Assembly (NCBI GenBank): GCA_963780165.1 | Contig: CAWABB010000001.1 | Span: forward strand, 1,816,556 to 1,880,555 | From: an uncultured Ignavibacteria bacterium | Lineage (GTDB): Bacteria > Bacteroidota > Ignavibacteria > UBA10030 > UBA6906 | DNA: 64,000 nucleotides | Direction of reading: 5' to 3' | Shown here: piece after piece, positions 3,316-41,360 of the stretch | Layout: the number at the start of each line of letters is the position of its first letter | Numbering within the stretch: position 1 is the first letter of the stretch | Program-made: the position numbers and the translations under genes | Notes under the pieces: model-generated | What the model saw: only the letters and a program-made list of their open reading frames with translations | What the model was told of the DNA's origin: nothing | Database searches by the model: none

Positions 3316-3753
3316 TCAGTTGTTCTTCGCCCCCTGATTCACCCACTCGGTGATGATGCCGATGTCCCCGTCCGACAATGGCTTGATCGGCTCCTTCTTC
3401 CGCTTCTTGCGGGGATCAAAGGGCATCCGGTCGCCGAACGGCGGATTCTCCAGAAGCTTCTGCACGAAGACGCTCTCCGATGCCTTCCCCGGCTTAACCA
3501 AATCTCCGTGTTTCCCGCCTTTCATCAGCAGATCATACGAGTCGAGCGACAGCTCGCTCGGATTAAACTGCTCCTCCGCATGGCACGGCATGCAGTTCCT
3601 GCTGATGATCGGGACGATGTCTTGCGAGAATGATACGGGCGGGCGGACCTTCGGAGTATCCACTCTTTCCACGCCCTTCTCCTGCGCCCGCGCAGCAACC
3701 GCCCAGCCCACCACGAGCAGCGCCAACACACACCAACGATGACGTTCTCTCAA
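3316..3753 (-). CDS. Periplasmic monohaem c-type cytochrome, PSCyt1-like domain.
   Basis: It has a signal peptide (MRERHRWCVLALLVVGWAVAARA) and a single CXXCH motif (CMPCH). The C-terminus shows the pattern ...GG.HGDLVKPG...S.....L....FGDRMPF...LSDGDIGIITEWVNQGA, which resembles the Planctomycete-type cytochrome c (PSCyt1) domain. It is a paralogue of the C-terminus of the 4979..5683 gene. Confidence 0.7.
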   Translation of the reverse strand: MRERHRWCVLALLVVGWAVAARAQEKGVERVDTPKVRPPVSFSQDIVPIISRNCMPCHAEEQFNPSELSLDSYDLLMKGGKHGDLVKPGKASESVFVQKLLENPPFGDRMPFDPRKKRKKEPIKPLSDGDIGIITEWVNQGAKNN

Positions 3754-3764: not shown

Positions 3765-4886
3765 TTACAGGTAAAAGTGAAGCATGATGTGAAACTCGTT
3801 GTTGGAGTAGTTCTCCGGCTCCTCCACGACCACGCGATACATCGGACGGACCTCTACGCCGCTCACGGGGAAAAATTCCACCCCGAAACTGTAGCGCGAC
3901 ATCGCGCCATCCTTCACGTCCTTGTCCGGATCGTAGAAATCGTATGCGACCTTCAGGTCCACGCCCGGCGTGACGACGTAGTTGGCCTCGGCGTATGCCA
4001 CGTAGCCGGTAACGGTCCCCGACGGATGTTTCGTCTGGATCATGTCCCCCTCGCCGAACAGCGTGAAGTCTCCGATGCTGAACGACCCAACGCCGCCGAA
4101 GAGATTCTGCGTCACGTCGCCCGAGGTCGTCGTCCCGAACATGTTCGCCCCCAGGCCGAGATGCATGTCTTTCCCAAGCTCGAAGAGACCGTCGGCCCTG
4201 ACCAGGTATGCCTTGCTGTTCCCCGTCGCGGCGCCGAAGCCGTCCTGCGCGTTGTACACCCCTGCAAACGCGGAGAACCAGCCGGGCGACACTCCCGCCT
4301 CGAGGCCCGTCAGCTCAGGCCGCGGGCTGGATTCCGGACTGAACCCCGTGTAGTGGCGGATGTAGGCCGTATGGTCGTCGAGGCGCGTACCAAAGTTCGG
4401 GACAAACTTTCCGACCTTCACGTGCCCGGCGGCCGGCAGCTGGGAGACCATGCCGAACAACTCAAAGCCACTGTAGAGGCCCTTTTCGAAATAGACGTTC
4501 ACCCTCTTGGCGAGCTTGAAGTTGAGGTACAGATCCCCCTGCATCTCCCAGAACGCGTTGCTGTTCTTCCCGGATGAGCCACCGGTGTCCGGCAGCTGCA
4601 CATAATAATAGAGCGTCCGCACGTCCACGCCGACTCCGACGAAGTTCGTGAGCAGCGTCGTAAAGTCTTCGATCTCCATGTCTGTGCCCCACTCCGGAAC
4701 CGGGAGCGTTTCCCGGCCGTACTGCGCACCAAACAGCTGCCGCATGCCGGCACCGGACGGGTTCACGTGACACGACTGGCACTTCGCGCCCGTCCTGCTC
4801 GAAAACCGCGGCAGGGCGGCAGCCTGGTTGAGCATGAACATCGCGCCAACCACAACGAGAGAAAGACAACGAAGCAGCACGCGCAT
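3765..4886 (-). CDS. cyc2: Cyc2-like fused monohaem cytochrome c / outer-membrane beta-barrel porin.
   Basis: It has a signal peptide (MRVLLRCLSLVVVGAMFMLNQAAA) followed by a single CXXCH (AKCQSCH) within 20 residues of the mature N-terminus. About 340 aa then follow with alternating hydrophobic beta-strand patterns rich in G/Y/F, ending ...IMLHFYL. Size (about 373 aa) and architecture match Cyc2-type iron-oxidase porin-cytochromes. The ATG is at 4884-4886 with an AAGGGA ribosome-binding site upstream. Confidence 0.6.
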   Translation of the reverse strand: MRVLLRCLSLVVVGAMFMLNQAAALPRFSSRTGAKCQSCHVNPSGAGMRQLFGAQYGRETLPVPEWGTDMEIEDFTTLLTNFVGVGVDVRTLYYYVQLPDTGGSSGKNSNAFWEMQGDLYLNFKLAKRVNVYFEKGLYSGFELFGMVSQLPAAGHVKVGKFVPNFGTRLDDHTAYIRHYTGFSPESSPRPELTGLEAGVSPGWFSAFAGVYNAQDGFGAATGNSKAYLVRADGLFELGKDMHLGLGANMFGTTTSGDVTQNLFGGVGSFSIGDFTLFGEGDMIQTKHPSGTVTGYVAYAEANYVVTPGVDLKVAYDFYDPDKDVKDGAMSRYSFGVEFFPVSGVEVRPMYRVVVEEPENYSNNEFHIMLHFYL

Positions 4887-4978: not shown

Positions 4979-5683
4979 CTAGTTATTCAGCGCGCCCTGA
5001 TCGACCCAGGTACGGATGGTCGTGATACTCGCGTCCGGCAGGAACGGACCGCCCTGCGGCATGCGGGCACCGAAAGGCGGGTTCGGTGAGATCTTCTTCA
5101 CGAGGTTCGAGCCGGCTCCATCGCCAGGCACGATGGCCGGTCCATGGTTGCCGCCTCTGAGCAGGTCGGCAACCGTTTCCACCGTCAGCCCGTTGGTGCC
5201 GCCGTGGCACCCTGTGCAGCCGTGCTGCACCAGCAACGGGTGAACATCCTGCGAGAAGGAGACCTGTGTCGTCCCCGCCTGAACCGTTACTCCGACGGCA
5301 TTCGAGTTCGCGGAGATCCCGCCCGCCGTCACGGCGCGCACACGATAAAAGTAGCGCGCGCCGGTGGTGAGCCCGGTGATCGTGAGGGAGGTCGCAATTC
5401 CGGCGTCGCGGTTGTTGTAGCCGGCAAGGAACGAGCCGAACAGCGAATCCTGAGAGACGTCGAGGCGATAACCCGTAGCCCCGCTGACGGCGCTCCACCT
5501 TGCGGTGAAGCTTGAATCGGTGACGCCCGTCGGCGAGCCGGCGGTGGGGACGCCGGTGTCGGGCGGAGTAGCGGGGTTGGTGCCCGAATCGCTGCACCCC
5601 GCTGCCAGCAGCATCAGTCCGGCCATTGCTGCCAGAAGCGGGGACGCAGTCGTCGACCCGGCGGAGGATCGAACGATGAACAT
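4979..5683 (-). CDS. Lipoprotein with an FN3-like domain fused to a C-terminal monohaem cytochrome c (PSCyt1-like).
   Basis: Lipobox LLAAGC. The central part has a fibronectin-III-like segment (...GYRLDVSQD...TGLTTGARYFYRVRAVTAGG). The C-terminus has CTGCH plus ...GG.HGPAIVPGDGAGSNLVKKI...FGARMP...ITTIRTWVDQGA, homologous to the 3316..3753 gene. The ATG at 5681-5683 lies 17 nt after the CHRD gene stop. Confidence 0.7.
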   Translation of the reverse strand: MFIVRSSAGSTTASPLLAAMAGLMLLAAGCSDSGTNPATPPDTGVPTAGSPTGVTDSSFTARWSAVSGATGYRLDVSQDSLFGSFLAGYNNRDAGIATSLTITGLTTGARYFYRVRAVTAGGISANSNAVGVTVQAGTTQVSFSQDVHPLLVQHGCTGCHGGTNGLTVETVADLLRGGNHGPAIVPGDGAGSNLVKKISPNPPFGARMPQGGPFLPDASITTIRTWVDQGALNN

Positions 5684-5699: not shown

Positions 5700-7616
5700 T
5701 TATTTGAGTATGAGCATGCGTTTCGTGAGCGATGGGCCGCTGCCCGCATCCAGCCTGTAGAAATAGACGCCGCTGGAAAGTCCGCGCGCGTCAAAGGTGG
5801 CCAGGTAGGTCCCGGCCGGGCGCACGTCATCAACAAGTGTCGCGACCTCCTGCCCGAGCAGACTGTACACCTTCAGCGACACCCGACCGGGCTCCGGAAC
5901 CTGGAAGCGGATCGAGGTTGACGGATTGAAGGGGTTGGGATAGTTCTGATCCAGCGAAAAGGCTGACGGTAGAGCCTCCTCAACCGGCGCAACGGATGTC
6001 ACCGCGTCTGAACCGAAACGCACCTGTCCGCGGATCTCACCTCCCGGATGGGCGGCCGTATGGAAGTTAGCATAGATGCGACCAGCCAGCAAGGAATCCA
6101 CGAGCGCCCGGGTCAACGGCTGCGACGGGCTGTTCGTGGACCAGTTGTCCGCAATCGTTGCCGACGCAGGATCGCTTGCCCCGGCAATGTTCCGCACCAC
6201 GGGCCCGTTCACACCGACCGGCGCCGCATGGAAGTGCCCGCCGATCGAAAGCGGTCCGGAGAGGCCATAGTACGTAATTGCATAGCCAATGTCTTGACGT
6301 TCCGCATTCAGCACCACGGATCCCGCCCCGCGCCCCGCGGTTGCGACGGCAGGAACTTCCTGATCCCCGTCAAGCATGATGGTGAACCCCACGCCGGTGG
6401 TGAGATGCACCTGGTCTCTGATTTCGCCGGCCGGGTTCGCCGTCGTGTGGAAGTTTACGTAGATCCTCCCTGCCAGCAGCGCCTCCACCAGCGCGACTGT
6501 CAGCGGCTGGGAGTCGGTGGTCGTCCACGTCCCTGCATACGTGGCAGAAGCAGGGCCGCCGCCATTCGCTACACCGCGCACGACCGGCCCGGATTGCCCC
6601 TGATCGCCCGTATGGAAGTGTCCGCCGGCGGTCAGCGGCCCGGTCAGGCCGAAGTAGGTAATCTCGTAGCGCAATTCATTCCGCGCATCGTTCAGCGTGA
6701 ACGACCCGGCCCCTTTCCCGTCTGCGGTCACCGTCCCGGGTTCGTTAGAAGCTTCGAGCCACGAGAAGAAGCTCGTGCCGCCCTGGAGTTCGAGCTGGCC
6801 CCGGATCTCCCCTCCGGGATTCGCGGCGGTATGGAAGTTCACGTAGAGGCGCCCGGCAATGAGCGAATCCGCGAGCGCCGGTGTGAGCGGCGTGCTGTCC
6901 GTGAACTTCCAGCTTCCCTTGATGGCGTCCGCTGCGGGACCCCCGCCCGACGCGATTCCGAGCGCCACGGGCCCCGATACCCCACGAGCCCCCGTATGAA
7001 TGTGGCCGCCCGCACTGAGTGAGCCGCTCAGGTCGCGATAGGCCAGGTAGTAATCGAGCTGCGATCTGTTTGGAGATAGGATGAATACGCCCGTCCCCAT
7101 GGCGTCGGTCGTCACAGGATTCGGTTCCTGCGCCCCGGAGAGGTGCGCGGTGAAGTGCAGGGCTGTCGCAAGCGTGACCTGGCCCCGGATTTCGCCCGCC
7201 GGATTTGAGTTTGTATGGAAATTCACGTAGACCCGGCCGGTGAGCAACGACTCAACAAGTGCCGGTGTGAGCGGCTCTGTGTCGGTGCTCCGCCAGACTC
7301 CCGTGATGATCCCCGACGGCGCCGCCCCCGCCTCTGCAATGCCTCGCATGGCGGCGCCGTTTGTTCCCGGGGACCCCACGTGAAAATGCCCGCCCACCGA
7401 GAGCGCGCCTGTCAGCCCCTGATAGGAGATCACATACGCAAGCTCGGTGAACGTCTCATTCAGCGAGAACGAACCTGAGCCCGTCCCTGTGACGGCGGAG
7501 GGGGGAACGCTCTGCGCGCCGTTCAGCGTTGCCGAAAAGTGGATCTGCGCGTTCGCCGGGCCCGCCCCAGCAAGCACGAGAGCGATCAGCACCATGGTGT
7601 ATCGGAATCGAGTCAT
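5700..7616 (-). CDS. T9SS-secreted protein with four tandem CHRD domains.
   Basis: It has a signal peptide. Four modules of about 150 aa each carry the CHRD signature (GGH[FI]H.G..G..GPV...I.......G.W...D..PLT.ALV..LL.GR.YVNFHT..[NH]P.GEIRGQ). The C-terminus (NYPNPFNPSTSIRFQVPEPGRVSLKVYSLLGQEVATLVD...GVYFYRL) is a Por/T9SS C-terminal sorting domain. Confidence 0.8.
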   Translation of the reverse strand: MTRFRYTMVLIALVLAGAGPANAQIHFSATLNGAQSVPPSAVTGTGSGSFSLNETFTELAYVISYQGLTGALSVGGHFHVGSPGTNGAAMRGIAEAGAAPSGIITGVWRSTDTEPLTPALVESLLTGRVYVNFHTNSNPAGEIRGQVTLATALHFTAHLSGAQEPNPVTTDAMGTGVFILSPNRSQLDYYLAYRDLSGSLSAGGHIHTGARGVSGPVALGIASGGGPAADAIKGSWKFTDSTPLTPALADSLIAGRLYVNFHTAANPGGEIRGQLELQGGTSFFSWLEASNEPGTVTADGKGAGSFTLNDARNELRYEITYFGLTGPLTAGGHFHTGDQGQSGPVVRGVANGGGPASATYAGTWTTTDSQPLTVALVEALLAGRIYVNFHTTANPAGEIRDQVHLTTGVGFTIMLDGDQEVPAVATAGRGAGSVVLNAERQDIGYAITYYGLSGPLSIGGHFHAAPVGVNGPVVRNIAGASDPASATIADNWSTNSPSQPLTRALVDSLLAGRIYANFHTAAHPGGEIRGQVRFGSDAVTSVAPVEEALPSAFSLDQNYPNPFNPSTSIRFQVPEPGRVSLKVYSLLGQEVATLVDDVRPAGTYLATFDARGLSSGVYFYRLDAGSGPSLTKRMLILK

Positions 7617-7645: not shown

Positions 7646-7852
7646 TTAGGCCGACCGTTTCGCGGTCGTGACCTTGAGCAATGCGTACAGCGGGCAGAAT
7701 CCGGCGGCACCCGTCACGAGCAGCACGACAGCCACGATCCCGAGGATCACGGCAGTCGGGCCGGTGAGCTGTCCACCCATGATCAACACTCCGATCGCAA
7801 GTGCGACGAGCGTCCGGATGACACGGTCCGCCGAGCCGACATTCTTTGTCAT
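7646..7852 (-). CDS. DUF2892 (YgaP-like) small inner-membrane protein.
   Basis: 68 aa with two TM helices. Conserved ADRVIR...G.......LTG..GFCPLYALL motif. It is the first gene of the operon and has a GGGGGGA ribosome-binding site. Confidence 0.65.
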   Translation of the reverse strand: MTKNVGSADRVIRTLVALAIGVLIMGGQLTGPTAVILGIVAVVLLVTGAAGFCPLYALLKVTTAKRSA

Positions 7853-7975: not shown

Positions 7976-7991
7976 GTCAAGCACCGTGCCA
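7976..7991 (-). promoter_or_regulatory. Putative sigma54 (-24/-12) promoter reading toward the DUF2892/CHRD/Cyc2 operon.
   Basis: The minus strand reads TGGCACGGTGCTTGAC. This matches TGGCACG-N4-TTGMW, with GG at -24 and TTG at -12. The single mismatch is GA in place of the conserved GC. It lies about 125 bp upstream of the DUF2892 start, and a sigma54 activator is encoded adjacent. Confidence 0.45.
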
Positions 7992-8223: not shown

Positions 8224-9639
8224 TTACGCGCGATATGTGGCCGGGTCGATCGAGTGCTCGGCGAGTTTGCGGTACACGGTCTTCCTGTCCACCTCCATCA
8301 GCCGCGCTATCTGGTTGATGTTGCCCCGATGCTCCCGCATGAGCCGGAGCAGGTATCGCTCCTCGGCGACGCGCACAATCACCCCGAGATAATCGCGGTA
8401 CGGAATATCGAGGCCGGGGACGGCGGGTTGCTCATCTCCCGCGAGCGCGTGATCGGCGGCACCGGGGAGTTCGAGGTGCGTGATCGTGTCGCCGGGCGTC
8501 TTGAGCAGCGCACGCTTGATCAGGTTCTCGAGCTCGCGGACATTCCCGCGCCAGGGATGCGCAACCATCTCGCCGATGACGTCAGGACTGATGGAGGTGA
8601 CGCGCCCACCAGCAAGGTGGGCGTGAAGCCGCAAGAAATGCTCCGCAAGCAACGGGATGTCCTCCACGCGCTCGCGCAGTGGCGGAAGCGTGATCGGAAA
8701 CACGTTTAGACGGTAGAAGAGATCCTCGCGGAAATCTCCCGCAGCAACCATGACATCAAGATTGCGGTTCGTTGCGGCCACGACACGGGTGTCGACCGTA
8801 ACGGTCTTCCCTCCGCCGACGCGCTGGAATGTCTTTTCCTGCAGTACCCTCAGGAGCTTCCCCTGCAGCGCTGGCGGCATCTCCCCGATCTCATCCAGGA
8901 AGAGGGTCCCCGTGTCTGCCTCCTCGAACTTCCCGGTCCGCTGCCTGTCGGCTCCCGTGAACGAGCCCCGCTCGTGGCCGAACAGCTCGCTTTCCAGCAG
9001 TTGTTCCGGCAGCGCCGTACAGTTCACGGCAACGAACGGGCTCGACTTCCGTCTGCCGTTGAAGTGCAGCGCACGCGCGACAAGCTCCTTCCCGGTTCCG
9101 CTTTCACCAAGGATCAACACGGTCACGTCGGTGTCGGCAACCTGCGTGATCTGGGTGATCACGTCCCGTATCCCGGGGCTGCGGGAAACCATCCCGCCCA
9201 GACTGTACTTCGTCTGGACGGCGTCCCGCAGCGACCTGAGCTCGAGCTCCCGGAACTGCTGATCCAGAGCCCGGCGGATCTTGATCGACAGCTCCTCATT
9301 GTTGGACGGTTTGGTCAGGTAGTCGATGGCGCCGAGTCGCATGGCTTCCACCGCCGTCTGGATGGAACCGAATCCCGTCACCATGATCACAGGCAGGTCA
9401 GGCCACTGCTGCTTGACGATGCGAAGAAGGTCGATGCCACTTCCGCTCCCCATCACAAGATCGGAAAGGAGCAGGTCACATCGCTGGGCAGCGAGGATAT
9501 CGAGCGCTTTCGTGACGCCGTCGGCCAGCGTCACCTTGTAGCCCTCGTCCTCGAGCACGGTGCGGGTCGCCAGCCGGAAGGCTCCGTCGTCATCCGTCAC
9601 AAGGATGTGTTCTCTCGGGCGTGCGTCAGTGTGTGTCAT
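8224..9639 (-). CDS. Sigma54-dependent response regulator (NtrC family; REC-AAA+-HTH).
   Basis: Receiver domain (ILVTDDD...DLLLSDLVMG...). AAA+ sigma54-interaction domain (GESGTGKELVARALH, GAFTGA-like SFTGA). C-terminal Fis-type HTH. Its start overlaps the stop of the upstream kinase. Confidence 0.9.
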   Translation of the reverse strand: MTHTDARPREHILVTDDDGAFRLATRTVLEDEGYKVTLADGVTKALDILAAQRCDLLLSDLVMGSGSGIDLLRIVKQQWPDLPVIMVTGFGSIQTAVEAMRLGAIDYLTKPSNNEELSIKIRRALDQQFRELELRSLRDAVQTKYSLGGMVSRSPGIRDVITQITQVADTDVTVLILGESGTGKELVARALHFNGRRKSSPFVAVNCTALPEQLLESELFGHERGSFTGADRQRTGKFEEADTGTLFLDEIGEMPPALQGKLLRVLQEKTFQRVGGGKTVTVDTRVVAATNRNLDVMVAAGDFREDLFYRLNVFPITLPPLRERVEDIPLLAEHFLRLHAHLAGGRVTSISPDVIGEMVAHPWRGNVRELENLIKRALLKTPGDTITHLELPGAADHALAGDEQPAVPGLDIPYRDYLGVIVRVAEERYLLRLMREHRGNINQIARLMEVDRKTVYRKLAEHSIDPATYRA

Positions 9640-11209
9640 CGTGCGCGTCTCCGGACGGCAGCGTGATCGTGAGCCGTGTTCCCTTGCCGGCTGTGCTCTG
9701 GACGGTGATCGTGCCGCCGTGCTGGTGAACGATTCCGTGGGTGACCGAGAGGCCGAGGCCGACCCCGCTTACCTCTTTCTTTGTAGTGAAAAAGGCGTCG
9801 AAAATGCGATGAAGGTGTTCGGGAGGGATGCCCGTGCCGGTGTCGTCCACACGGACCACGAGGTTGCCTCCCTCCGCCCGCGCCCCGATCGAGATCGTCC
9901 CACCATGCGGCATCGCATCCCGCGAGTTCAGAAGAAGATTCAGGAACACCTGCTTCAGCTTGTCCCGGGATCCGCGGACTGCAGGGAGTCCGGGGCCCGC
10001 CGATACGTCGATCGAGATACCCTGCCCTGCGAACGATTCCCGGTACATGCGAACAACGTCTTCCACGAGGTCCATCACGTTCACCGGTGAGCGCTCCACC
10101 CGGACCGGAGCGCCGCGGTACATGTCCAGCATCGCCCTCGTCAATCCCGCAAGGCGGTTCACCTCGTCCAGCGCCACCGACACCAGCTCGTGCGCCGGAT
10201 CATCGGCGCGGATTTTCCGGAGCGATGAAGACAGGAGGCTCTGGATGTTATGGACGGGGTTGTTGATCTCGTGCGAAAGCTGGGCGGTCAGCGTGCCAGT
10301 CAGCGCGAGGCGCTCGCTGCGCACGAGGTCTTCCTGTGTCCTGCGCAGGCGCTCGAGTGCCTCTTCGATGTCACGATTCTTCCGCGACAGCTCACGGTTG
10401 GCGTGATCGAGCTCGCCGATCTTCTGCCTGAGCGAGAGACGCATGTCGTCGAACCTTGCCGCAAGGAACCCGAGCTCGTCTCCCGCGTCCGTTTCCTCCG
10501 CCGCCCGAGGGGTGGCAGACTCGAGGTCGCCCTTGCTGATCGCGCGGGTCGCCGCAACCAGCCGGTCCACCGGCCTGGTGACAAACCGCGTGAACATGAA
10601 CGACGAGACAAAGATGACGAGCCCCGTGAATCCCAGGAAGATGAGGAGCGACCGTGTCCAGTTCGCCCTGGTCGCGGCGGTCATATCGGCGAACGAAACG
10701 CTGAGGTCGGCCGCGCCAAGCGTGTAGCCCACGGGCACAGCATGGCACTCCTGGCAGGTCTTTGTTGCAGTGAACGGGATGACCCCTCGGAACCGATCGC
10801 CCGCCCGAACGAACTCGGGGGTTCCGCTCTCCAGTGCCTTCCGCGTCATCGGGTCGCGCGCACCGATGTCGACGAACCGGCGGCTGGTGGCGACCTTCGG
10901 CACCGCAGGCTGCGCTTCCTTGCGCAGCCGGAGGTCATTCACCACGAGCCGCACCGTCTCGAACCGCTCGATGGTATTCACCCGCTCGATAAACGCAGTA
11001 TCGACTTCCAGATTCGTCACCATCATGCTGACCAGGGATTCCCGGAGGATGTCGGCATGTGTGTGGGCGGACAACTGTGCCTGCTCCACCATTTCGCGCT
11101 CCTGGAACCGGTTCTGGAGGAGCACGCTAACCGAGATAAACAGGAGGAACAGGGGGAGAATCCCCAGGAGAATCTTCCGGGAGAGCGGCAGACGCTGCAG
11201 AACGTGCAT
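9626..11209 (-). CDS. Sensor histidine kinase with a periplasmic CXXCH (haem-c) containing sensor domain.
   Basis: N-terminal TM, a periplasmic domain of about 170 aa containing TKTCQECHAVPVGYTLGAADLSVSF, a second TM, HAMP, HisKA (LSHEINNPV) and HATPase_c. The periplasmic module may be Tll0287-like/DUF3365 (haem-c PAS-like), but this is unconfirmed. The likely start is the ATG at 11207-11209. Confidence 0.85.
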   Translation of the reverse strand: MHVLQRLPLSRKILLGILPLFLLFISVSVLLQNRFQEREMVEQAQLSAHTHADILRESLVSMMVTNLEVDTAFIERVNTIERFETVRLVVNDLRLRKEAQPAVPKVATSRRFVDIGARDPMTRKALESGTPEFVRAGDRFRGVIPFTATKTCQECHAVPVGYTLGAADLSVSFADMTAATRANWTRSLLIFLGFTGLVIFVSSFMFTRFVTRPVDRLVAATRAISKGDLESATPRAAEETDAGDELGFLAARFDDMRLSLRQKIGELDHANRELSRKNRDIEEALERLRRTQEDLVRSERLALTGTLTAQLSHEINNPVHNIQSLLSSSLRKIRADDPAHELVSVALDEVNRLAGLTRAMLDMYRGAPVRVERSPVNVMDLVEDVVRMYRESFAGQGISIDVSAGPGLPAVRGSRDKLKQVFLNLLLNSRDAMPHGGTISIGARAEGGNLVVRVDDTGTGIPPEHLHRIFDAFFTTKKEVSGVGLGLSVTHGIVHQHGGTITVQSTAGKGTRLTITLPSGDAHDDTH

Positions 11210-11331
11210 GGAACGGCCGGTAATTGGTGGACGGCGACGGCTGATTCGGCTCAAGGTACCTGTTTGACGAAAGAGAATCAAAAAACAGCCTTCTTGAACC
11301 TCCACATTCGGATGCCTATATTATAGATTCG

Positions 11332-16280: not shown

Positions 16281-16988
16281 CTAGTCGCAGCACCCTCCGT
16301 GAGGAGCGGCCGGCAAGGGAGCCGCAGGGCTGACATACGGAATTCCCAGACCGAGCCCCCGCACAATCAACAACACGCCCAGCAGTGCGCCGAACCACGG
16401 GAGCATTGCGACGAGCTTCATCCTGAAGGAGCCCGGCAGTTTGTATCCCGCCATCGACAACCCCAGCATGATGGGCACAGTACCCGTGCCGAAGCCGGCC
16501 ATGAACATCACTCCGCCGGCCTCGGAGCCGGTCGTAGCCGCGCCGGCGAGCGCCGCCACAACGAACCCACACGGGAGAAAGCCGTTCAGCACGCCTACCA
16601 GAAACAACGCGAACAGCGACCGGCGTCGGAACAGCGAGCCCAGCGCGTCAGTCATGCGCCTCTGCACGGCATCGGCACCGGGGACACGGGGAAGGAAGCG
16701 GCGTGCAACCGCCGGGGCGAGGGATGTAAGAATCAGGAATGCGCCGAGAACAATGGAAAGGGCCTGCTGGTAGCCGAGAAGCGCGATGCCTCTGCCGATG
16801 GCGCCGACCACGAGGCCCAGCAGAGCGTATGTCACAATACGGCCGCTGTTGTAGGTAAGTCGACCTGCGAGGAGCGGCCATGCGGTCTTCCCGCCAGTTG
16901 GCAGCGCAAGCGCGATGGGCCCGCACATCCCGGCACAATGCACGCTTCCCATGACGCCGACAAGAAATCCCGATACAATCTCCATCAC
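16281..16988 (-). CDS. DsbD_2/TauE-like membrane protein associated with cbb3 oxidase maturation.
   Basis: Multi-TM protein with an HCAGMCGP motif near the N-terminus. It is the last gene of the cco cluster. Confidence 0.6.
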   Translation of the reverse strand: MMEIVSGFLVGVMGSVHCAGMCGPIALALPTGGKTAWPLLAGRLTYNSGRIVTYALLGLVVGAIGRGIALLGYQQALSIVLGAFLILTSLAPAVARRFLPRVPGADAVQRRMTDALGSLFRRRSLFALFLVGVLNGFLPCGFVVAALAGAATTGSEAGGVMFMAGFGTGTVPIMLGLSMAGYKLPGSFRMKLVAMLPWFGALLGVLLIVRGLGLGIPYVSPAAPLPAAPHGGCCD

Positions 16989-16995
16989 GGAGCCC

Positions 16996-17451
16996 TCAGT
17001 TCAGAACGACTTTCGCCTCTTCATAGTACTGCGCTCCGCCGGCGAGCCATTCGACCTTCACCGTCCAGAGCCCGGGGTGCAGCCACGGTGATTCAATACG
17101 CATCGTTCCGGACGAGTCCAGGCTGAGCGGCGCGGCAAAATCCATCGCGCGGTCCGACGGACGGTAGAGCGTCACGGTTCCGTTCACCTCGCCGGACCGA
17201 GCGACCCCGGGGATCATGATCGTCACGCCGCCGGTCGTTCCGCTCACCGTCATCAGGGCGCCCGAGGATCGCGCACGCTGGATGCTCTGAATCCGCCCCT
17301 CGTACTCGAGCCCCCGCTGGTAGTAGTCGTCCGCGACCAGGTCGGTCGGGCTCGAGAGCGCGATCCAGACCATCACTGCCAAGCCCACACCGAAGATCGC
17401 GAACGCGATCACGATCCCGGTCCCCCAGTTCAATGTGCGCGCCGCGTTCAT
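16996..17451 (-). CDS. ccoH: FixH/CcoH-family protein.
   Basis: Single N-terminal TM plus a FixH-like periplasmic domain. ATGA overlap with ccoG. Confidence 0.65.
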   Translation of the reverse strand: MNAARTLNWGTGIVIAFAIFGVGLAVMVWIALSSPTDLVADDYYQRGLEYEGRIQSIQRARSSGALMTVSGTTGGVTIMIPGVARSGEVNGTVTLYRPSDRAMDFAAPLSLDSSGTMRIESPWLHPGLWTVKVEWLAGGAQYYEEAKVVLN

Positions 17452-18893
17452 CGCTGCACCCCCGGACCGAGAAACGAGGTGTGAATCGTATGGAGCTTCT
17501 TCCCGTCCGCGTACACGCCAACGGTCAACGGTGTGCTCAGGCCCGTAAGCTGCTCGCGCTGCAGCAGAATCAGCAGCTTCGATTCCGCGATCCCCTGTGG
17601 CTCCGCCGCCAGGTCACCGCCCATGACCTCAATCTGCCCTTCCGTCTCCTCGAGGATGAACGTAACGGGCACTTTCACGAATGTCTTGTTCAGGACCTTC
17701 ACGTCGTATACGTTGCTGACCCTGCCGTCCGGGCGGTCCTGATAGAACATCCCCGGAGTACGGAGAACCGTCACATCGACCTCGCTCCGATTGGCCAGCA
17801 AAACAGTAAGGACGCTCACGAGGAGAAGCAGCACCACCGAGTATCCGATGACGCGGGACGTCCAGAGGCGCGACGTGCCGGTGGCGATCGCCGTGGCGGA
17901 GTCGTACCGTACGAGCCCACGGGGTTTCCCGATCTTGTCCATCACGGTGTCGCAGGCGTCGATGCATGCGGTACAGTTCACGCATTCCAGCTGCGTGCCG
18001 TTGCGGATGTCGATTCCTGTCGGACAAACCTCCACACACTGGTCGCAGTCGATGCAGTCGCCCTTCGTGCGGTCAGTGCCCCGGCGGAGCCTGCCCCGGG
18101 GTTCGCCGCGACGATAATCATACCCGATCACGATAGAGTTCTTGTCGAGGAGCACGCCCTGCAGCCTGCCGTACGGACAGACCAGGATACACGCCTGCTC
18201 GCGGAACCACGAGAAGATCCAATAGAACACCGTGCTGAAGATGAGCATCGCCGTGAGCCCGCCGATATGCCTGAAGGGCGGGTCGGTCACGATCGTCCAG
18301 AGCTGATCGGTCCCGATGATCCAGGCGAGCAGGGTGTTGCCGATAGCGAAGGCCAGCACGGCGTAGATGAGAAACTTCGTCCCCTTGCGGAGAAGCTTCT
18401 GGCTGTTCCAGGGGGACTCGTTCAGCCGGCGCTGCTGTCGGTGGTCCCCCTCCACCCAGTAGTCGATCTTGCGGAACACCATCTCCATGAATACGGTCTG
18501 CGGACAGACCCAGCCACAGAAAAGGCGCCCGAAGACGACCGTGAAAAGAATGATGAAGACGATCGTTGTGATGAGCGCTATGGCGAGCAAATAGAAGTCG
18601 TGGGGGCCGAACACGGTGCCGAACAGGATGAATCTCCGTTCGAGGATGTTGAAGAGGAAGAACGGCGTGTCGTGCATGCGGACGAACGGCATGCCGACGA
18701 GGAAGGCCAGGAGGAGAAAGCTCAGGATCGTGCGCCACCGGTAGAAGCGGCCAGACGGCTGCTTGGGATAGATCCAGCTCCGCTTCCCCTGTTTGTTGAC
18801 GATGGTCATCGAGTCACGGAAGCTCTCCGTGGCCTGACCCGGCTCCTCCGCCGCCCCCTCGGCCCGTACCGTTCCCCCGTCTGTGTCTCCCAT
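17448..18893 (-). CDS. ccoG: cbb3 oxidase accessory protein CcoG/FixG (4Fe-4S ferredoxin).
   Basis: TM helices plus two ferredoxin cysteine clusters (CILVCPYGRLQG; CIDCDQCVEVCPTGIDIR). Confidence 0.85.
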   Translation of the reverse strand: MGDTDGGTVRAEGAAEEPGQATESFRDSMTIVNKQGKRSWIYPKQPSGRFYRWRTILSFLLLAFLVGMPFVRMHDTPFFLFNILERRFILFGTVFGPHDFYLLAIALITTIVFIILFTVVFGRLFCGWVCPQTVFMEMVFRKIDYWVEGDHRQQRRLNESPWNSQKLLRKGTKFLIYAVLAFAIGNTLLAWIIGTDQLWTIVTDPPFRHIGGLTAMLIFSTVFYWIFSWFREQACILVCPYGRLQGVLLDKNSIVIGYDYRRGEPRGRLRRGTDRTKGDCIDCDQCVEVCPTGIDIRNGTQLECVNCTACIDACDTVMDKIGKPRGLVRYDSATAIATGTSRLWTSRVIGYSVVLLLLVSVLTVLLANRSEVDVTVLRTPGMFYQDRPDGRVSNVYDVKVLNKTFVKVPVTFILEETEGQIEVMGGDLAAEPQGIAESKLLILLQREQLTGLSTPLTVGVYADGKKLHTIHTSFLGPGVQR

Positions 18894-19727
18894 TTATCCG
18901 GTTGCCTTTGTGCTATCGGCCGGAGCGGCATTCACGGCGGGCTCGACGTACAGCGTTCCCTCCTGCTTCTTGGCATTCGGGGGGGCTGTTCCCTGCAGCG
19001 ACAAGACGTAACTGGCGATTTCCTGTATCTGCTTTGGCGTAAACACCAGCTGCCAGCTGATCATGCCTTTTGCCGCCACACCGTTCTTGATGGTTGCATA
19101 CACGTTTGAGATGGCACCCCCGTGAATCCAGTACTGGTCGGTGAGGTTGGGCCCCACCACGCCCTGCCCCTGGGGACCATGACAGGAAACGCAGTACTTG
19201 CCGAACGCTTCTTTGCCGCGCCCGAGGGCTCCCGGGTCCACGAGCGCCGCGAGCGCGTTCTCGTCGATCGCACCTTCTTTCGCGATCATCATCCGCCGCT
19301 GGAGATCCGCCGCCGCGACCTCCTGCCGGTACTCCTCGACCATGAGCGGCGAACTCCCGAGCACATGATAGCTGATCATATAGGTCGCCCCGAAGACGAT
19401 TGTCCCCAGGAAGAGCGTTGTGAACCAAGGAGGTATGCGGTTGTCCAGCTCCCGGATGTTGTCATACACGTGGTCGGGCATTTCGGCGTCGGCGGACTTC
19501 CCGGCAAGCGCATAGCGCCGCAGGAAGGCGAACGTCGCACCGAGCCGTTTCCGATCGGCCTCCGGGAGCACGAGGAGAAAGAAGAGGATCGCGATGATGA
19601 TGATCGTGGTTGTCGCGGTAAGGTTCAGCGCGAAGGTGGTGCCCGGATCCCCGGACCCCGCCGCGAACGCGGCGCCGGTGGGCATGATGGGAAGGGTCAT
19701 CATCAACATACGTCGCAGTGTTGTCAT
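18894..19727 (-). CDS. ccoP: cbb3-type cytochrome c oxidase subunit III (CcoP), monohaem variant.
   Basis: N-terminal TM/FixP_N-like region and a single CVSCHGPQGQG haem site. The ATG at 19725-19727 overlaps the ccoQ stop. Confidence 0.8.
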   Translation of the reverse strand: MTTLRRMLMMTLPIMPTGAAFAAGSGDPGTTFALNLTATTTIIIIAILFFLLVLPEADRKRLGATFAFLRRYALAGKSADAEMPDHVYDNIRELDNRIPPWFTTLFLGTIVFGATYMISYHVLGSSPLMVEEYRQEVAAADLQRRMMIAKEGAIDENALAALVDPGALGRGKEAFGKYCVSCHGPQGQGVVGPNLTDQYWIHGGAISNVYATIKNGVAAKGMISWQLVFTPKQIQEIASYVLSLQGTAPPNAKKQEGTLYVEPAVNAAPADSTKATG

Positions 19728-19912
19728 AGTCTCACTTCCTTTCCGCGCACGCTGTCATCGTCGAACGGGAGCCGCTCACAGTGGTCGATCCGCTCACGCG
19801 TGATATGGAACACCCGGACGACAATCAGGAGGAAGGCCAGGACCGAGAGTATGAGAGATACCTGGCCGATGTACTCCGAGCCGGTCAGGGATGAAAGATA
19901 GTGTGAGATCAC
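19724..19912 (-). CDS. ccoQ: Small cbb3 oxidase subunit (CcoQ-like).
   Basis: 62-aa single-TM peptide (VISHYLSSLTGSEYIGQVSLILSVLAFLLIVV...) with a GTG start. It lies between ccoNO and ccoP. Confidence 0.5.
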   Translation of the reverse strand: MISHYLSSLTGSEYIGQVSLILSVLAFLLIVVRVFHITRERIDHCERLPFDDDSVRGKEVRL

Positions 19913-19928
19913 GGTGGCTTTCCTCCTG

Positions 19929-22043
19929 TTACCGCTTCGCGCCTTTGATGTCGGTGCCCAGGCGCTGCAGGTACGCAATGAGGGCGATGATCTCCTTCTG
20001 CGGATCCGCCGGCGCCCCGGCCTTGGTGATGTCCGTCGCGAGCGCCTCGGCTTGAAGCTTGAGGTCCTCAACAGCGCGCTCATCGTAGCCGGCCGGGTAC
20101 GGAACGCCGAGCGACTGCATGGCCCGGATCTTTGCAGCGGTCGAACCGACATCCAGATCCTGCGACAACAGCCAGGGGTATGCCGGCATGATGGATCCTG
20201 GTGACATGGAGGTCGGCTCGTTCATATGGAGGTAGTGCCAGAGATTCGGAAACTTGCCGCCGACGCGATGGAGATCAGGCCCTGTCCGTTTGGACCCCCA
20301 GAGGAACGGATGGTCGTAGACAAATTCCCCGGCCTTCGAGTACTCGCCGTAGCGCTCCGTCTCCGACCGGAACGGGCGCACCATCTGGGAGTGACAGTTG
20401 TTGCACCCCTCGCGGATGTAAATGTCCCGTCCCTGGAGCTCCAGCGGCGTGTACGGCTTCACGCTGGAGATGGTGGGGATGTTGCTCTTTACGACGTAGG
20501 TGGGGATGATCTCGACCAGGCCGCCGATCAGGATCAGCACGAGCGCAAGGACAGTGAACTGCGCCGGTTTCCGCTCGATCCAGCGGTGGCGGGATTCCTT
20601 CGGACCGTGATGATCGGCCGCAAGCGGCGCTGCAGCAGCTTCGACGGAGGCCTCAAACTTTCCCTGACGGGCCGTTTTGACCAGGTTGTACGTCATCACC
20701 ACGACGCCGCCCAGATACAGGGTTCCCCCGAAAGCCCTGATCGTCCAGAACGGGACGATCTGCAGGACGGTTTCTAGGAAGTTCGGGTACTGCAGGGTTC
20801 CAAAGTCCGTGAACTGCTTCCACATCAGGGACTGTGTCAGGCCGGAGGTGTACATGGCCACCGCGTAGAACACGATGCCGAGCGTCCCGATCCAGAAGTG
20901 GAGGTTTGCCAGCGTGCGGGAATAAAGCGTCGTCCCGTACAGTTTCGGCACCAGCCAGTAGAGCATCCCGAACGTGAGGAACCCGTTCCAGCCAAGGGCC
21001 CCGACGTGCACGTGCGAGATGATCCAGTCTGTGTAGTGCATGATGGCGTTCACGTTCTTGAGCGAGAGCGCCGGGCCCTCGAACGTCGCCATCCCGTAGG
21101 CGGTAACCGCAACCACCATGAACTTCAGCACGGGGTCCTCACGCACCTTGTCCCATGCTCCCCGGAGCGTCAGCAGACCGTTGATCATGCCGCCCCACGA
21201 CGGGGCGAGCAGCATGACCGAGAAGACCGTACCGAGCGACTGCGCCCAGTCCGGCAGGGCCGTGTAGAGCAGATGGTGCGGGCCCGCCCAGATATAGATA
21301 AAGATCAGCGACCAGAAGTGGATGATGGAGAGCCGGTAAGAGTAGACCGGCCGGTCAGCCGCTTTCGGGAGGAAGTAATACATCAGCCCAAGGAACGGGG
21401 TCGTGAGGAAGAACGCCACCGCGTTGTGCGCGTACCACCACTGGACCAGCGCATCCTGCACGCCCGCATACAGGGGGTAGCTCTTCATGATCGACGCGGG
21501 CAGCTCAAACGAGTTCACGATGTGCAGAACGGCGACGGTGACAATCGTCGCGATGTAGAACCAGATTGCCACGTACATGTGGCGTTCCCGCCGTTTGACC
21601 AGGGTGCCGAACAGGTTGATGGCGAAGACCACCCAGACCAGCGTGATCGCGATGTCGATGGGCCATTCCAGCTCCGCATACTCCTTGCTGGTCGTGAGTC
21701 CCAGCGGGAGCGTCAAGGCGGCGGAGACGATGATCCCCTGCCAGCCCCAGAAGTGGATCCACCCCAGCAGCCTGCTGAACATCGGCGTCTTGCACAGGCG
21801 GGGAAGTGAATAGTAGATGCCCGTGAAGACCGCGTTCCCCACGAAGGCAAAGATCACGGCGTTCGTGTGCAGCGGCCGGATGCGGCCGAAGGTGATGTAC
21901 TGGAGGCCGGCGTTGAGCGAGGGGATGAACAGCTGGAAGGCGATGATGACGCCGACCAGCATCCCCACAAGGCCCCAGACGACCGTCGCAATGGTGAACG
22001 CGCGGACGATCGTGTTGTCGTATCGGAAGCGTTCGAGTTCCAT
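19929..22043 (-). CDS. ccoNO: Fused cbb3-type cytochrome c oxidase subunits I+II (CcoNO).
   Basis: Haem-copper oxidase subunit I with 12 TM and His ligands, fused to a monohaem CcoO (CNNCHSQMVRPF...WHYLHMNEP). The likely start is the ATG at 22041-22043 (MELERFRYDN...). Confidence 0.9.
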   Translation of the reverse strand: MELERFRYDNTIVRAFTIATVVWGLVGMLVGVIIAFQLFIPSLNAGLQYITFGRIRPLHTNAVIFAFVGNAVFTGIYYSLPRLCKTPMFSRLLGWIHFWGWQGIIVSAALTLPLGLTTSKEYAELEWPIDIAITLVWVVFAINLFGTLVKRRERHMYVAIWFYIATIVTVAVLHIVNSFELPASIMKSYPLYAGVQDALVQWWYAHNAVAFFLTTPFLGLMYYFLPKAADRPVYSYRLSIIHFWSLIFIYIWAGPHHLLYTALPDWAQSLGTVFSVMLLAPSWGGMINGLLTLRGAWDKVREDPVLKFMVVAVTAYGMATFEGPALSLKNVNAIMHYTDWIISHVHVGALGWNGFLTFGMLYWLVPKLYGTTLYSRTLANLHFWIGTLGIVFYAVAMYTSGLTQSLMWKQFTDFGTLQYPNFLETVLQIVPFWTIRAFGGTLYLGGVVVMTYNLVKTARQGKFEASVEAAAAPLAADHHGPKESRHRWIERKPAQFTVLALVLILIGGLVEIIPTYVVKSNIPTISSVKPYTPLELQGRDIYIREGCNNCHSQMVRPFRSETERYGEYSKAGEFVYDHPFLWGSKRTGPDLHRVGGKFPNLWHYLHMNEPTSMSPGSIMPAYPWLLSQDLDVGSTAAKIRAMQSLGVPYPAGYDERAVEDLKLQAEALATDITKAGAPADPQKEIIALIAYLQRLGTDIKGAKR

Positions 22044-22050
22044 GCGTTCC

Positions 22051-22227
22051 TTACGATAGATGATGATTCGAGTCCCGCGGCGCGGGATTCGGCTCGTCAA
22101 ACAACATGCGTATAGATGGCGTCACGCGGTCATCGTACTGCCCCGACCGGACCGCCCAGAGGAACGCCAGGAGAAATCCTCCCGCGAGCATCAGGCTGGC
22201 TCCGATCATGACCGCGATGACGGACAT
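22051..22227 (-). CDS. ccoS: cbb3 oxidase maturation protein CcoS/FixS.
   Basis: 58 aa (MSVIAVMIGASLMLAGGFLLAFLWAVRSGQYDDRVTPSIRMLFDE). It is absent from the ORF track because it is under 60 aa. It lies between ccoI and ccoNO. Confidence 0.75.
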   Translation of the reverse strand: MSVIAVMIGASLMLAGGFLLAFLWAVRSGQYDDRVTPSIRMLFDEPNPAPRDSNHHLS

Positions 22228-24626
22228 CAGGCAATCCCTTTGCGTCGCGCCGCAATCCGCACCGACATGGTGGAGAGCAGCACGACGGTGATGGAGCTGA
22301 GCGGCATAAGGATAGCCGCCACCACGGGGGAAAGATCCCCGCGAACCGCCACCCAGAGCACCGCCGCATTATACAGAAATGAAACCGCAAAACTCACGAG
22401 CACGATGCGCACCGCGGCCCGGGACAGATCCAGAAACGCCGGGAGCAGATGGAACGAGCCTCCGTGCAGAATCCCGTCGCTGGCCGGGGTGAACCGGGCT
22501 GCATCCTCCGACACCGCGATTCCCACGTCCCCTTCCTTGAGCGCCACGGCATCGTTCAATCCGTCGCCAACCATCATCACGACTGCTCCTTCTTTCCGGA
22601 GTCCGCGAATGTGTTCGCGCTTCTCAGCCGGCGACTTCCCGAACTGCATCTCGACATTTCCGCCCAGGACGGCCTGCAGCGGGCGCCTGTCCCCCGCCGT
22701 GTCGCCCGAAAGCAGCCCGAGGCGATACCGCCCTCGCAGGGACGCGAACACTCTCTCGAGTCCATCGCGAAACCTCGTCCGGGCGACGAAGATCCCCCGC
22801 GTGGTGCCGTCTACGCCAACGGCCACGTGTGTCCGCCCGGGCATTGGCCCATCCGCACCCGCTACGAACCGCGACGATCCGAGCCGAACGGCATGCCCGT
22901 CAACCGTTCCCTCGATGCCTTCGCCGGGAATTTCGCAGAACTCCTCGACGGTTCCCGTGGCATCACCCTGGAGCGCGGCTGATAGCGCGCGGCTGAGAGG
23001 ATGCGACGAGTGCTGCGCCAGCGATGCCACCAGAACCGCATCCTTCCGCGACAACCCCACTCCCTCGAACTGCAGCCCGACTCCGCCGGCACACGTCAGC
23101 GTGCCGGTCTTGTCGAAGAGAATCGTCGTGACGCGGGCGAGCTGCTCCACCACTCCAGCGTTCTTCAGGTAGAATCCTTTCCTGCCGAACAGCCGCATCA
23201 TCGTCCCGAACGCAAACGGCGTCGCCAGCGCGAGCGCGCATGGACATGCAACAATCAGGACCCCGGTGATGGCGTCAAGCGCAATGCCCGCATCGCGCGG
23301 GAACCAGTACAGGCCTGTGAGCCCCGCACCAAGCAGGACGCCCGCGGTGAAGTACCTCGCCACCGTGTTCGACACCGTGACCAGGCTCCGGGATTCGTCT
23401 CGCTGATCGCCGTGCTCGTTCCACAGGCTCGTCAGATAGCTCTGCGAGACCTCCCGCACGACCTCAAGCTCGATCGCGCCACCGCGCTGCCGACCGCCCG
23501 CATGCACCAGGTCGCCGACAACGCGCTCGACCGGCGTCGATTCCCCCGTCACAAAACTGTAGTCGATGAGCCCGCGCCCGTACATCATGACGGCGTCGGC
23601 GGGGACGATGTCGCCGTTCCGGACCACGACGCGCTCGCCGACCATAAGCTTGGATACCGGCACCGGACGCTCGCCGTCCTGATTACGTACCGTCACGGCC
23701 AGCGGGAAGTACGCCTTGTATGTGCGCTCGAAGTTGAGCGTGTCGTACGTCTTGGCCTGAAACAGCTTCCCGAGGAGCAGGAAGAACACCAGGCCGCTCA
23801 TCGAATCCAGGAATCCCGGTCCTGCACCCGAGACGATGTCGAACAGGCTCCTTGCGAACAGGATAAGGATCCCCAGCGCGATCGGCACATCGAGGTTGAC
23901 GATCCCACGCTTCAACCCTCCGGCCGCGGAGAGAAAGAACGCTTGTGAACTATACAGGAGCACGGGCAGGGACAGGGCAACATTCAGCGCCGAGAACAGC
24001 TTGCCCAATTCCGATTCCCCGCCGGCGAAATACTCGGGGAAACTCAGGAGCATGATGTTGGCGAAGCAGAATCCCGCTACGCCCACGCGCGCGTAGAGAG
24101 CGGCCATCGGCTGTGCCGGTGCGCGCCGCTCGGGAGAGGCAAACGAGAGCTCGGGCTCGTATCCGAGCGAGGCAAGAAGCTCGACGACGTTCCTGAGTGT
24201 CGTATCGCCGTTGAACCTGATAAAGAGCTGTCTCTTGAGAAAGTCCACGCGTGAATGGACAATTCCTGGGTCCAGGGCGTGCAGGTTCTCGAGCAGCCAT
24301 ACGCACGAGGCGCAATGCATCCCGGGAACAGTCAGCGTGGTGGTGTGAGTTGTGCCGTCGGTGAAATCGAGCAACCCTGCAACCACTTCGGGATCGTCAA
24401 GATACGCGTAGCGCGCGTCGCCGCCGAACCGGGGAGTCAGGCCCGGGGATTCCTCGCGCCGGTAATAGTCTCCCAGCCTGTGGCGCTCCAGCAAATCGTA
24501 GACCGTTTTGCACCCTTGACAACAGAACGCTTTCCCGTCGCCCTGAGGCACATCGCTCGGGACAGGATCGCCACAATGAAAGCAGCTCGTCTGGGGTGAG
24601 ACTGCCTCGGCGTGAGGAAGGGGCAT
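22227..24626 (-). CDS. ccoI: Copper-translocating P1B-type ATPase CcoI/FixI.
   Basis: Cys-rich N-terminal metal-binding region (CFHCGDPV, CCQGC), CPC motif, DKTGTLT and GDGxND motifs. Confidence 0.9.
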   Translation of the reverse strand: MPLPHAEAVSPQTSCFHCGDPVPSDVPQGDGKAFCCQGCKTVYDLLERHRLGDYYRREESPGLTPRFGGDARYAYLDDPEVVAGLLDFTDGTTHTTTLTVPGMHCASCVWLLENLHALDPGIVHSRVDFLKRQLFIRFNGDTTLRNVVELLASLGYEPELSFASPERRAPAQPMAALYARVGVAGFCFANIMLLSFPEYFAGGESELGKLFSALNVALSLPVLLYSSQAFFLSAAGGLKRGIVNLDVPIALGILILFARSLFDIVSGAGPGFLDSMSGLVFFLLLGKLFQAKTYDTLNFERTYKAYFPLAVTVRNQDGERPVPVSKLMVGERVVVRNGDIVPADAVMMYGRGLIDYSFVTGESTPVERVVGDLVHAGGRQRGGAIELEVVREVSQSYLTSLWNEHGDQRDESRSLVTVSNTVARYFTAGVLLGAGLTGLYWFPRDAGIALDAITGVLIVACPCALALATPFAFGTMMRLFGRKGFYLKNAGVVEQLARVTTILFDKTGTLTCAGGVGLQFEGVGLSRKDAVLVASLAQHSSHPLSRALSAALQGDATGTVEEFCEIPGEGIEGTVDGHAVRLGSSRFVAGADGPMPGRTHVAVGVDGTTRGIFVARTRFRDGLERVFASLRGRYRLGLLSGDTAGDRRPLQAVLGGNVEMQFGKSPAEKREHIRGLRKEGAVVMMVGDGLNDAVALKEGDVGIAVSEDAARFTPASDGILHGGSFHLLPAFLDLSRAAVRIVLVSFAVSFLYNAAVLWVAVRGDLSPVVAAILMPLSSITVVLLSTMSVRIAARRKGIA

Positions 24627-26255: not shown

Positions 26256-26330
26256 CGGAACGTAGCGCAGGCCCGGTGGCGCACCTGCATGGGGTTCAGG
26301 GGGTCATGGGTTCAAATTCCACCGTTCCGA
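26256..26330 (+). tRNA. Divergent, possibly pseudo, tRNA-Pro(GGG)-like gene.
   Basis: Cloverleaf with anticodon loop AUGGGGU. Relative to the 41248..41321 copy it has a C-U mismatch at 31-39, an A-C mismatch at 49-65, a G-U at 53-61 and a longer D-loop. Confidence 0.5.
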
Positions 26331-39655: not shown

Positions 39656-39777
39656 TTCGCTCCCGACACATCTTTGGTGCGTGGACGGTGGCCAGGGGAC
39701 CTTGAAGATCGCCATCCCTGAAGGAATCGTTGGTTCAACAGCAGCATTTCATTCATCAACATCACGGAGCTACAACA

Positions 39778-41321: not shown

Positions 41322-41360
41322 CTGATTCCACAGATGGTTCTTTGCACGTTGCCTTCCCGG

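Follow-up and report, generated by a model that had tools for sequence, protein, structure and literature searches.

A divergent Cyc2-like cytochrome-porin from an uncultured Ignavibacteria bacterium and its putative role as an outer-membrane electron conduit

Here we describe a cytochrome-porin gene at positions 3765..4886 (minus strand) of a 64,000-nucleotide stretch of DNA from an uncultured Ignavibacteria bacterium (hereafter the window, meaning the whole stretch that was analysed). Based on its translation (373 amino acids, aa), on 532 homologues and on an hhalign comparison with canonical Cyc2, the product can be described as a divergent, Cyc2-like protein in a sister clade that lies outside Cyc2 clusters 1-3. 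This clade is new: it is large and unannotated, it fails the published Cyc2 signature, and it has its own conserved residues, partner gene and regulation. By analogy with its characterised relatives, we lean slightly towards a reading in which this deep-branching relative of Cyc2, an outer-membrane monohaem cytochrome joined to a 16-strand porin, would act as an inward electron conduit with Fe2+ as the likeliest reductant.

Architecture of the cytochrome-porin and its relation to Cyc2

The open reading frame (ORF) starts with ATG at 4886, ends with a stop codon at 3765-3767 and comprises 373 codons on the minus strand. An alternative, longer ORF that begins with GTG reaches 4979; the ATG at 4886 fits as the start because relatives begin 22-25 aa ahead of the conserved ALPRF. 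By inspection, the N-terminus MRVLLRCLSLVVVGAMFMLNQAAA|LPRF looks like a type-I signal peptide (aa 1-24, 4815..4886, minus strand) with cleavage after AAA, and in all relatives the conserved region begins immediately past an AxA-type site. The product opens MRVLLRCLSLVVVGAMFMLNQAAA|LPRFSSRTGAKCQSCH and closes HFYL. Its sole CXXCH lies within AKCQSCH at aa 34-40, and this predicted haem c attachment site, CQSCH (aa 36-40, 4767..4781, minus strand), is invariant both in 120/120 superfamily sequences and in 117/117 full-length close relatives; residue counts here and below refer to 120 superfamily sequences (the query and 119 representatives), each from a distinct 50%-identity cluster. The original prediction had read the gene as encoding a signal peptide, one CXXCH (AKCQSCH) at the mature N-terminus and a C-terminal HFYL, and all three readings are borne out. 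Since the single CXXCH sits identically in all 117 full-length relatives, this description is not a product of chance.

A porin barrel follows. We built an AlphaFold2 model on 55 relatives (predicted local distance difference test score, pLDDT, 73.4; predicted template modelling score, pTM, 0.72), in which 16 beta strands span aa 83-372 (3771..4640, minus strand), as had been anticipated from the sequence. The predicted fold is that of a 16-strand porin structurally like OprO/OprP, as in Cyc2, and differs from the MtrB/PioB type, in which a 26-strand barrel is paired with a separate multihaem cytochrome. MtrCAB, MtoAB and PioAB likewise combine an outer-membrane barrel with c-type cytochrome for electron transfer across the outer membrane and are functional analogues in that sense (PMC8406198). 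OprP/OprO and other 16-strand general porins share 9-16% sequence identity with the cytochrome-porin and, unlike it, have no haem domain. No Pfam family (including Porin_4, Porin_O_P and OMP_b-brl) covers the protein above threshold: Porin_4 scores 19 bits, below its gathering cutoff of 27, and a Porin_4 match of any kind at E<=0.1 was found in only 15/55 relatives. A profile of the 55 close relatives (A1) retrieved no porin at E<=10 from the PDB sequences, where matches were at chance level. NCBIfam gave no match for the cytochrome-porin nor for four canonical Cyc2, so its silence is uninformative on Cyc2 membership.

The family is sizeable. The best 120 of the 532 relatives returned by the database search share 55-96% identity and nearly all measure 361-435 aa; every named one is a 'hypothetical protein', and the names come mostly from metagenome-assembled genomes (MAGs) of Ignavibacteria/Bacteroidota. 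The single CXXCH stands at the same place in 117/117 that are full-length, the other three being N-truncated gene calls. In a full HMMER scan of 1.84 billion 50%-identity representatives, the family profile matched 2031 clusters at E<=1e-3, 840 at E<=1e-10 and 284 at E<=1e-30, and among the matches listed nearly all representatives with an N-terminus carry P-R-[FY]-A-x-R-x-G-x-x-C-x-x-C-H-V-N-P-[TS]-G-G-G-x-R. The published Cyc2 motif filter was passed by none of 150 clade representatives among the matches listed, and our literature search found no description of this clade.

Cyc2 was defined by Keffer et al. 2021 as having a signal peptide, one CXXCH, a 16-strand porin and a length of at least 365 aa, with AXPXFAR[Q/K][T/Y] upstream of the haem site and PXL four residues after CXXCH; PXFAR[Q/K][T/Y] served as the inclusion filter, and confirmed Cyc2 are mostly at least 400 aa long (PMC8406198). 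At 373 aa our protein lies at the short end of this range, and the clade as a whole is shorter than Cyc2 (~370 aa vs mostly at least 400). For comparison, species-representative genomes were scanned for back-translated P.FAR[QK][TY]xxxCxxCH, which gave at least 120 loci and 89 full-length canonical Cyc2, including those of Mariprofundus, Sideroxydans, Gallionellaceae and Acidithiobacillus. When the 120 clade sequences were aligned with these 89, hhalign returned 99.1% probability and E 7.3e-19 over 312 columns, which begin at the N-terminal motif and reach almost to the C-terminus. Indeed, both parts contribute: with the alignment split 22 residues past the haem site, the cytochrome part gave E 3.3e-12 and the barrel part E 2e-9. 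Barrel-only hidden Markov models (HMMs) of the clade and of canonical Cyc2 cross-matched at up to 40 bits, whereas solved porins gave nothing at the same database size, and the HMM of the 89 canonical Cyc2 scored 25.9 bits on the window protein. Homology to Cyc2 is therefore real in both domains but remote, and the best homologues are not unrelated soluble cytochromes.

The alignment also indicates what is shared and what is not. In common with Cyc2 clusters 1-3, for which Mariprofundus Cyc2 PV-1, Acidithiobacillus ferrooxidans Cyc2 and Leptospirillum Cyt572 are named examples, the clade has a signal peptide, a mature N-terminus starting at A-x-P-x-F, exactly three residues from that motif to the single CXXCH, N-x-[FY]-G after the haem site and a 16-strand OprP-like barrel. 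ALPRFSSRT (aa 24-32, 4791..4817, minus strand), a variant of AXPXFAR[Q/K][T/Y], aligns in register with AIPAFARKY, ungapped to CXXCH and with three residues before the first Cys in both; A, P, F and T match, while Arg is replaced by Ser/Ala and Q/K by Arg. Unlike clusters 1-3, the clade carries ALPRF[AS][SA]RT and VNP[TS]GGGxR instead of the published motifs, and it adds Arg49, Asp171/His172/Arg177 in the loop between strands 5 and 6, and a His at -4 from the C-terminus. A neighbour-joining tree of the 120 clade and 89 canonical sequences split the two groups in 100/100 bootstraps, although it was computed from a quick alignment of sets chosen by motif or score, so that intermediates may be missed; mean distances were 1.5 within the clade, 2.15 within canonical Cyc2 and 3.45 between them. 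The best bridge to the clade is L117 (40.6 bits), a Cyc2 from Bacteroidetes that carries the canonical motif.

Because the motifs fail and the clade stands apart in the tree, we call the protein Cyc2-like and assign it to no known cluster of Cyc2. The assignment to the Cyc2 family made in the original prediction therefore holds for the architecture and for remote homology in both domains, but not for AXPXFAR[Q/K][T/Y], PXL or cluster membership; the suggested placement among clusters 1-3 gave way to a separate clade outside all of them. The prediction had also singled out a Cyc2-type gene in a Fibrobacteres-Chlorobi-Bacteroidetes (FCB)-like organism. That setting is read from sorting domains of the type IX secretion system in the window and from relatives named after Ignavibacteria/Bacteroidota, but it is not new, because surveys have reported Cyc2 homologues in Ignavibacteriaceae/Bacteroidetes MAGs (PMC6344600) and in Ignavibacteriales (PMC8478452), and because canonical-motif genes occur in those lineages: among the matches listed, the canonical-motif loci include Ignavibacterium album, Ignavibacteriaceae, Melioribacteraceae, Kapabacteria and Bacteroidales alongside Mariprofundus, other Zetaproteobacteria, Sideroxydans, Gallionellaceae and Acidithiobacillus.

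Conserved residues, partner genes and regulation

Several residues conserved in the clade are missing from canonical Cyc2, among them Gly45, Arg49, Gly159, Gly166, His172, Arg177 and His370. The clade consensus of the N-terminal signature is ALPRFA[SA]RT, with Pro26 present in 119/120 sequences. Directly after the haem site, VNPSGAGMR (aa 41-49, 4740..4766, minus strand; superfamily consensus VNP[TS]GGGxR) is specific to the clade and takes the place of PXL; in it Gly45 and Arg49 are each found in 120/120, Asn42 in 101/120 and Pro43 in 102/120. Met48 was considered as a general sixth haem ligand and rejected, being present in just 62/120. Gly159 is again invariant (120/120), and a long conserved loop between strands 5 and 6 of the AlphaFold2 model (aa 162-191, ..PNFGTRLDDHTAYIR.., 4314..4403, minus strand) includes Gly166 (120/120), Arg177 (115/120), His172 (101/120) and Asp171 (88/120). 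This loop is probably the analogue of L3 in 16-strand porins, which constricts the pore from within. At the other end of the protein, four residues from the C-terminus, the clade-specific His370 (3777..3779, minus strand) is a candidate sixth haem ligand; His occupies this position in 114/120 sequences and in no canonical Cyc2. Strand order and residue alternation would place His370 facing the lumen and make it, together with the Asp-Asp-His...Arg loop, a candidate for substrate binding or haem ligation. Six distant superfamily members (P0142, P0173, P0232, P0234, P0253 and P0254) have a second CXXCH ~25-30 residues past the first and are thus dihaem variants of the cytochrome-porin fusion, one of them from a Nitrospirota MAG.

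To place the gene in context, neighbours were counted on four contigs from an exact look-up and at 80 loci from metagenomes that belong to the close family, the denominators being loci with enough sequence. The partner gene immediately downstream (3316..3753, minus strand) encodes a small secreted monohaem cytochrome c of 145 aa with CMPCH (Pfam PSCyt1, 27.8 bits vs a cutoff of 22), and its orthologue is found immediately downstream on the same strand in 52/62 related loci. In one locus (L124, 9518-10036) the downstream protein has a PSCyt1-like C-terminus with CVNAGCH (CX4CH) instead of CXXCH. On the upstream side lies a lipoprotein with an LAAGC lipobox (4979..5683, minus strand), which combines FN3 (Pfam fn3, E 2.4e-9) with a PSCyt1 monohaem domain (CTGCH; E 6e-7); a haem protein stands immediately upstream of the Cyc2-like gene in 16/51 related loci. 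Upstream of the lipoprotein, at 5700..7616 (minus strand), a secreted protein combines four CHRD domains (Pfam CHRD, E 5e-105) with a C-terminal sorting domain of the type IX secretion system (T9SS; Por_Secre_tail), and a CHRD protein is found upstream in 8/31 related loci. Each CHRD domain carries GGH[FI]H-x-G, and the protein is co-operonic with the cytochromes; a CHRD protein also adjoins the bridging canonical Cyc2 in L117. A 68-aa membrane ORF (7646..7852, minus strand; taken from the ORF list and the sequence) is the first ORF after the promoter described below.

A small subset of loci looks different. A CDF metal-efflux gene lies immediately upstream of the Cyc2-like gene in 3/51 loci, namely L121 (8551-9966), L147 and L148, where this cation-efflux transporter is present and the PSCyt1 partner is absent. 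In L123 (6627-7487), CDF, Haem_bd, the Cyc2-like gene and PSCyt1 follow each other in a row. The CDF-linked subset hints at a metal-homeostasis variant of the module.

Expression of the module may depend on sigma-54. A sigma-54-type -24/-12 promoter, TGGCACGGTGCTTGAC (TGGCAC-N5-TTGAC), lies at 7976..7991 on the minus strand. We counted 16 copies of TGGCAY-N5-TTGAM across the 1.03 Mb that the related loci span, where we estimate ~1 from its information content, and 12/16 are coding-strand copies that precede the Cyc2-like gene by 0.5-3 kb (the related loci listed being L122, L124, L135, L136, L153, L160, L161, L163, L168, L173, L179 and L180). The -12 box of this element is unusual, with TTGAM rather than TTGCW. 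A sigma-54 consensus scan of the whole window gave hits at chance level, so that only the position-specific conservation across loci is meaningful, and scans for sigma-70 promoters and terminators between 3000 and 8300 were likewise at chance level. About 120 bp further upstream of the promoter, the window has an inverted repeat, GTGTGGC..GCCACAC, that could be an activator site.

Upstream of the promoter lie a sigma-54-dependent response regulator of NtrC type (8224..9639, minus strand; Pfam Response_reg, Sigma54_activat and HTH_8) and a HAMP histidine kinase (9626..11305, minus strand; Pfam) whose predicted periplasmic sensor region contains a CXXCH (TKTCQECH). A sigma-54 regulator is found upstream of the Cyc2-like gene in 10/31 related loci. 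The kinase CXXCH (..FTATKTCQECHAVPVGYTLGA..), situated in the N-terminal sensor region, is kept in 8/8 same-strand orthologues as well as in the window copy, and no Pfam family covers this region. Such conservation suggests that the kinase may be a c-type haem redox sensor. Canonical cyc2 is likewise found with a histidine kinase and a sigma-54 (NtrC-type) regulator directly upstream in the Zetaproteobacteria (L003, L045 and L068), and the same arrangement occurs at canonical cyc2 in L021, L022, L055 and L056, with Acidobacteria among such hosts. The kinases at these canonical loci have no CXXCH, and the idea that a haem-c sensor is shared by the zetaproteobacterial cyc2-linked kinases was accordingly rejected.

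Some 11 kb away, the window also holds a cluster for a cbb3-type oxidase (16281..24626, minus strand), in which Pfam recognises DsbD_2, FixH, CcoG, CcoP, fused CcoNO and CcoI; it is complete, with a fused CcoN-CcoO polypeptide of 723 aa and the CcoI P-type ATPase.

Direction of electron flow and competing explanations

In the reading towards which we lean, a small soluble reductant, most likely Fe2+, would enter the pore and reduce the single haem at that end of the barrel which faces the periplasm, where the haem domain is presumed to sit as a plug. The electron would then pass to the small periplasmic PSCyt1 cytochrome c encoded directly downstream and on to the respiratory chain, with the high-affinity cbb3 oxidase as a possible sink. 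Expression would be driven from the sigma-54-type promoter, here probably under the control of the adjacent haem-c sensor kinase and the NtrC-type activator. Fe2+ is the leading substrate candidate on two grounds: the characterised relatives are all Fe(II) oxidases, and a lone haem inside so narrow a pore is accessible to soluble species only (argument of PMC8406198). An electron conduit is also the most economical explanation, since the conserved pairing of a cytochrome-porin with a periplasmic monohaem cytochrome matches the logic of cyc2-cyc1: in Acidithiobacillus (L025) Cyc2 is followed by a dihaem c4 in the known cyc2-cyc1 arrangement, and the clade likewise has a cytochrome c gene directly downstream.

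Several observations weigh against this reading. The protein has ALPRFSSRT where Cyc2 has AXPXFAR[Q/K][T/Y], and G-M-R stands opposite P-x-L, with a 3-residue insertion, VNP, after His40. The three Cyc2 with biochemical validation are all members of the motif-defined clusters 1-3 (PMC8406198), across the deepest split from our clade. The partner cytochrome is of PSCyt1 type, whereas Acidithiobacillus Cyc1 is of c4 type, and the partner is missing in 10/62 loci, three of which have the CDF metal-efflux gene upstream. The cbb3 genes stand outside the operon, with unrelated genes in the 11 kb between. In the AlphaFold2 model, the haem-bearing segment (aa 20-76) falls below pLDDT 50, a low confidence that is expected because the domain is cofactor-dependent. 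Finally, His370 hints at bis-His ligation, usually of lower potential than in Cyc2 PV-1, for which +208 mV has been reported (PMC8406198).

Bis-His haem would favour both a lower potential and a flow in the opposite direction. The same fused cytochrome-porin could carry electrons outwards, from PSCyt1 to an external acceptor in solution that would enter the pore, such as chelated Fe(III) or humic quinones, or could oxidise another small reductant; we regard this as unlikely, even though the clade-specific His370 (114/120) and His172 (101/120) make a low-potential bis-His haem conceivable. In its favour, Ignavibacteriales have been described as heterotrophs with both iron-oxidation and iron-reduction genes (PMC8478452) and Ignavibacteriaceae as taxa that reduce Fe(III) and have Cyc2 homologues (PMC6344600), and the operon here adds a lipoprotein cytochrome and a T9SS-exported CHRD protein that could be a surface component. 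Surface components are nevertheless found in a minority of loci (8/31 and 16/51), all characterised relatives are Fe(II) oxidases (PMC8406198), and solid acceptors are out of reach for one haem inside a narrow 16-strand pore, as argued in the same paper.

Less probable again, in our judgement, is a non-respiratory role in metal or redox homeostasis, be it detoxification or gating of periplasmic Fe2+ or another metal, uptake of iron or haem, or redox sensing at the outer membrane that feeds the adjacent two-component system. In its favour are the CDF transporter and missing partner of L121, L147 and L148, CDF with Haem_bd in L123 and the haem-c sensor region of the neighbouring kinase, and the conserved Asp-Asp-His loop could bind a metal; but CDF linkage is rare (3/51 loci), the fold is that of a general porin with no TonB-box or receptor features, and the dominant neighbour, an electron-carrier cytochrome (52/62), fits electron flow better than transport. 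That the protein is an ordinary general porin with a fortuitous CXXCH and no haem seems very improbable. Pfam porin matches do exist, though weak and below cutoff (Porin_4, 19 bits), whereas the CXXCH with its flanking motif is the best-conserved part of the protein (CXXCH invariant in 120/120), its region aligns in register with the Cyc2 haem domain (E 3e-12), and a cytochrome c partner gene is conserved alongside.

Other features of the window and wider significance

Elsewhere in the window, two near-identical tRNA-Pro(GGG) genes on the plus strand (26256-26331 and 41248-41322) flank a ~15 kb block, the first copy being the weaker in Rfam (36.7 vs 64 bits). The GC content of the first half of the block is 0.56-0.59 vs ~0.62, and the block contains two T9SS-tail proteins, a Reg_prop/Y_Y_Y kinase, a LuxR regulator and three unknown ORFs. 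An integrated island is one possible interpretation, though no integrase was seen in the block. Pfam matches none of three consecutive large ORFs of 715, 421 and 402 aa (36243-38390, 38390-39655 and 39730-40938, plus strand) at 1e-5. The C-terminus of the first, ..SINLF, resembles that of an outer-membrane barrel, and the other two have signal-peptide-like N-termini. Together they may form an uncharacterised envelope system.

To conclude, we tentatively raise, at somewhat less than even confidence, the possibility that this cytochrome-porin represents an unrecognised fourth major clade of the Cyc2 superfamily, comprising ~2000 clusters and distinguished by a signature of its own (ALPRFAxRxGxxCxxCH-VNP[TS]GGGxR), the DDH...R pore loop, the His at -4, the PSCyt1 partner and sigma-54-type control. 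Comparison of the clade with canonical Cyc2 would mark AxPxF, the CXXCH spacing, NxFG and the 16 strands as essential, with other features free to vary, and haem ligation and potential may differ from those of Cyc2. Cyc2 is the main marker gene for mapping microbial iron oxidation in genomes and metagenomes, and its definition rests on an N-terminal motif that the clade lacks, so that the motif filter would discard the clade. If its members do oxidise Fe(II) or exchange electrons at the outer membrane in some other way, then abundant heterotrophic Ignavibacteria-like bacteria would carry an uncounted marker of iron metabolism or extracellular electron transfer, and in heterotrophs of the Ignavibacteria/Bacteroidota type this capacity could be underestimated by surveys based on the canonical motif.

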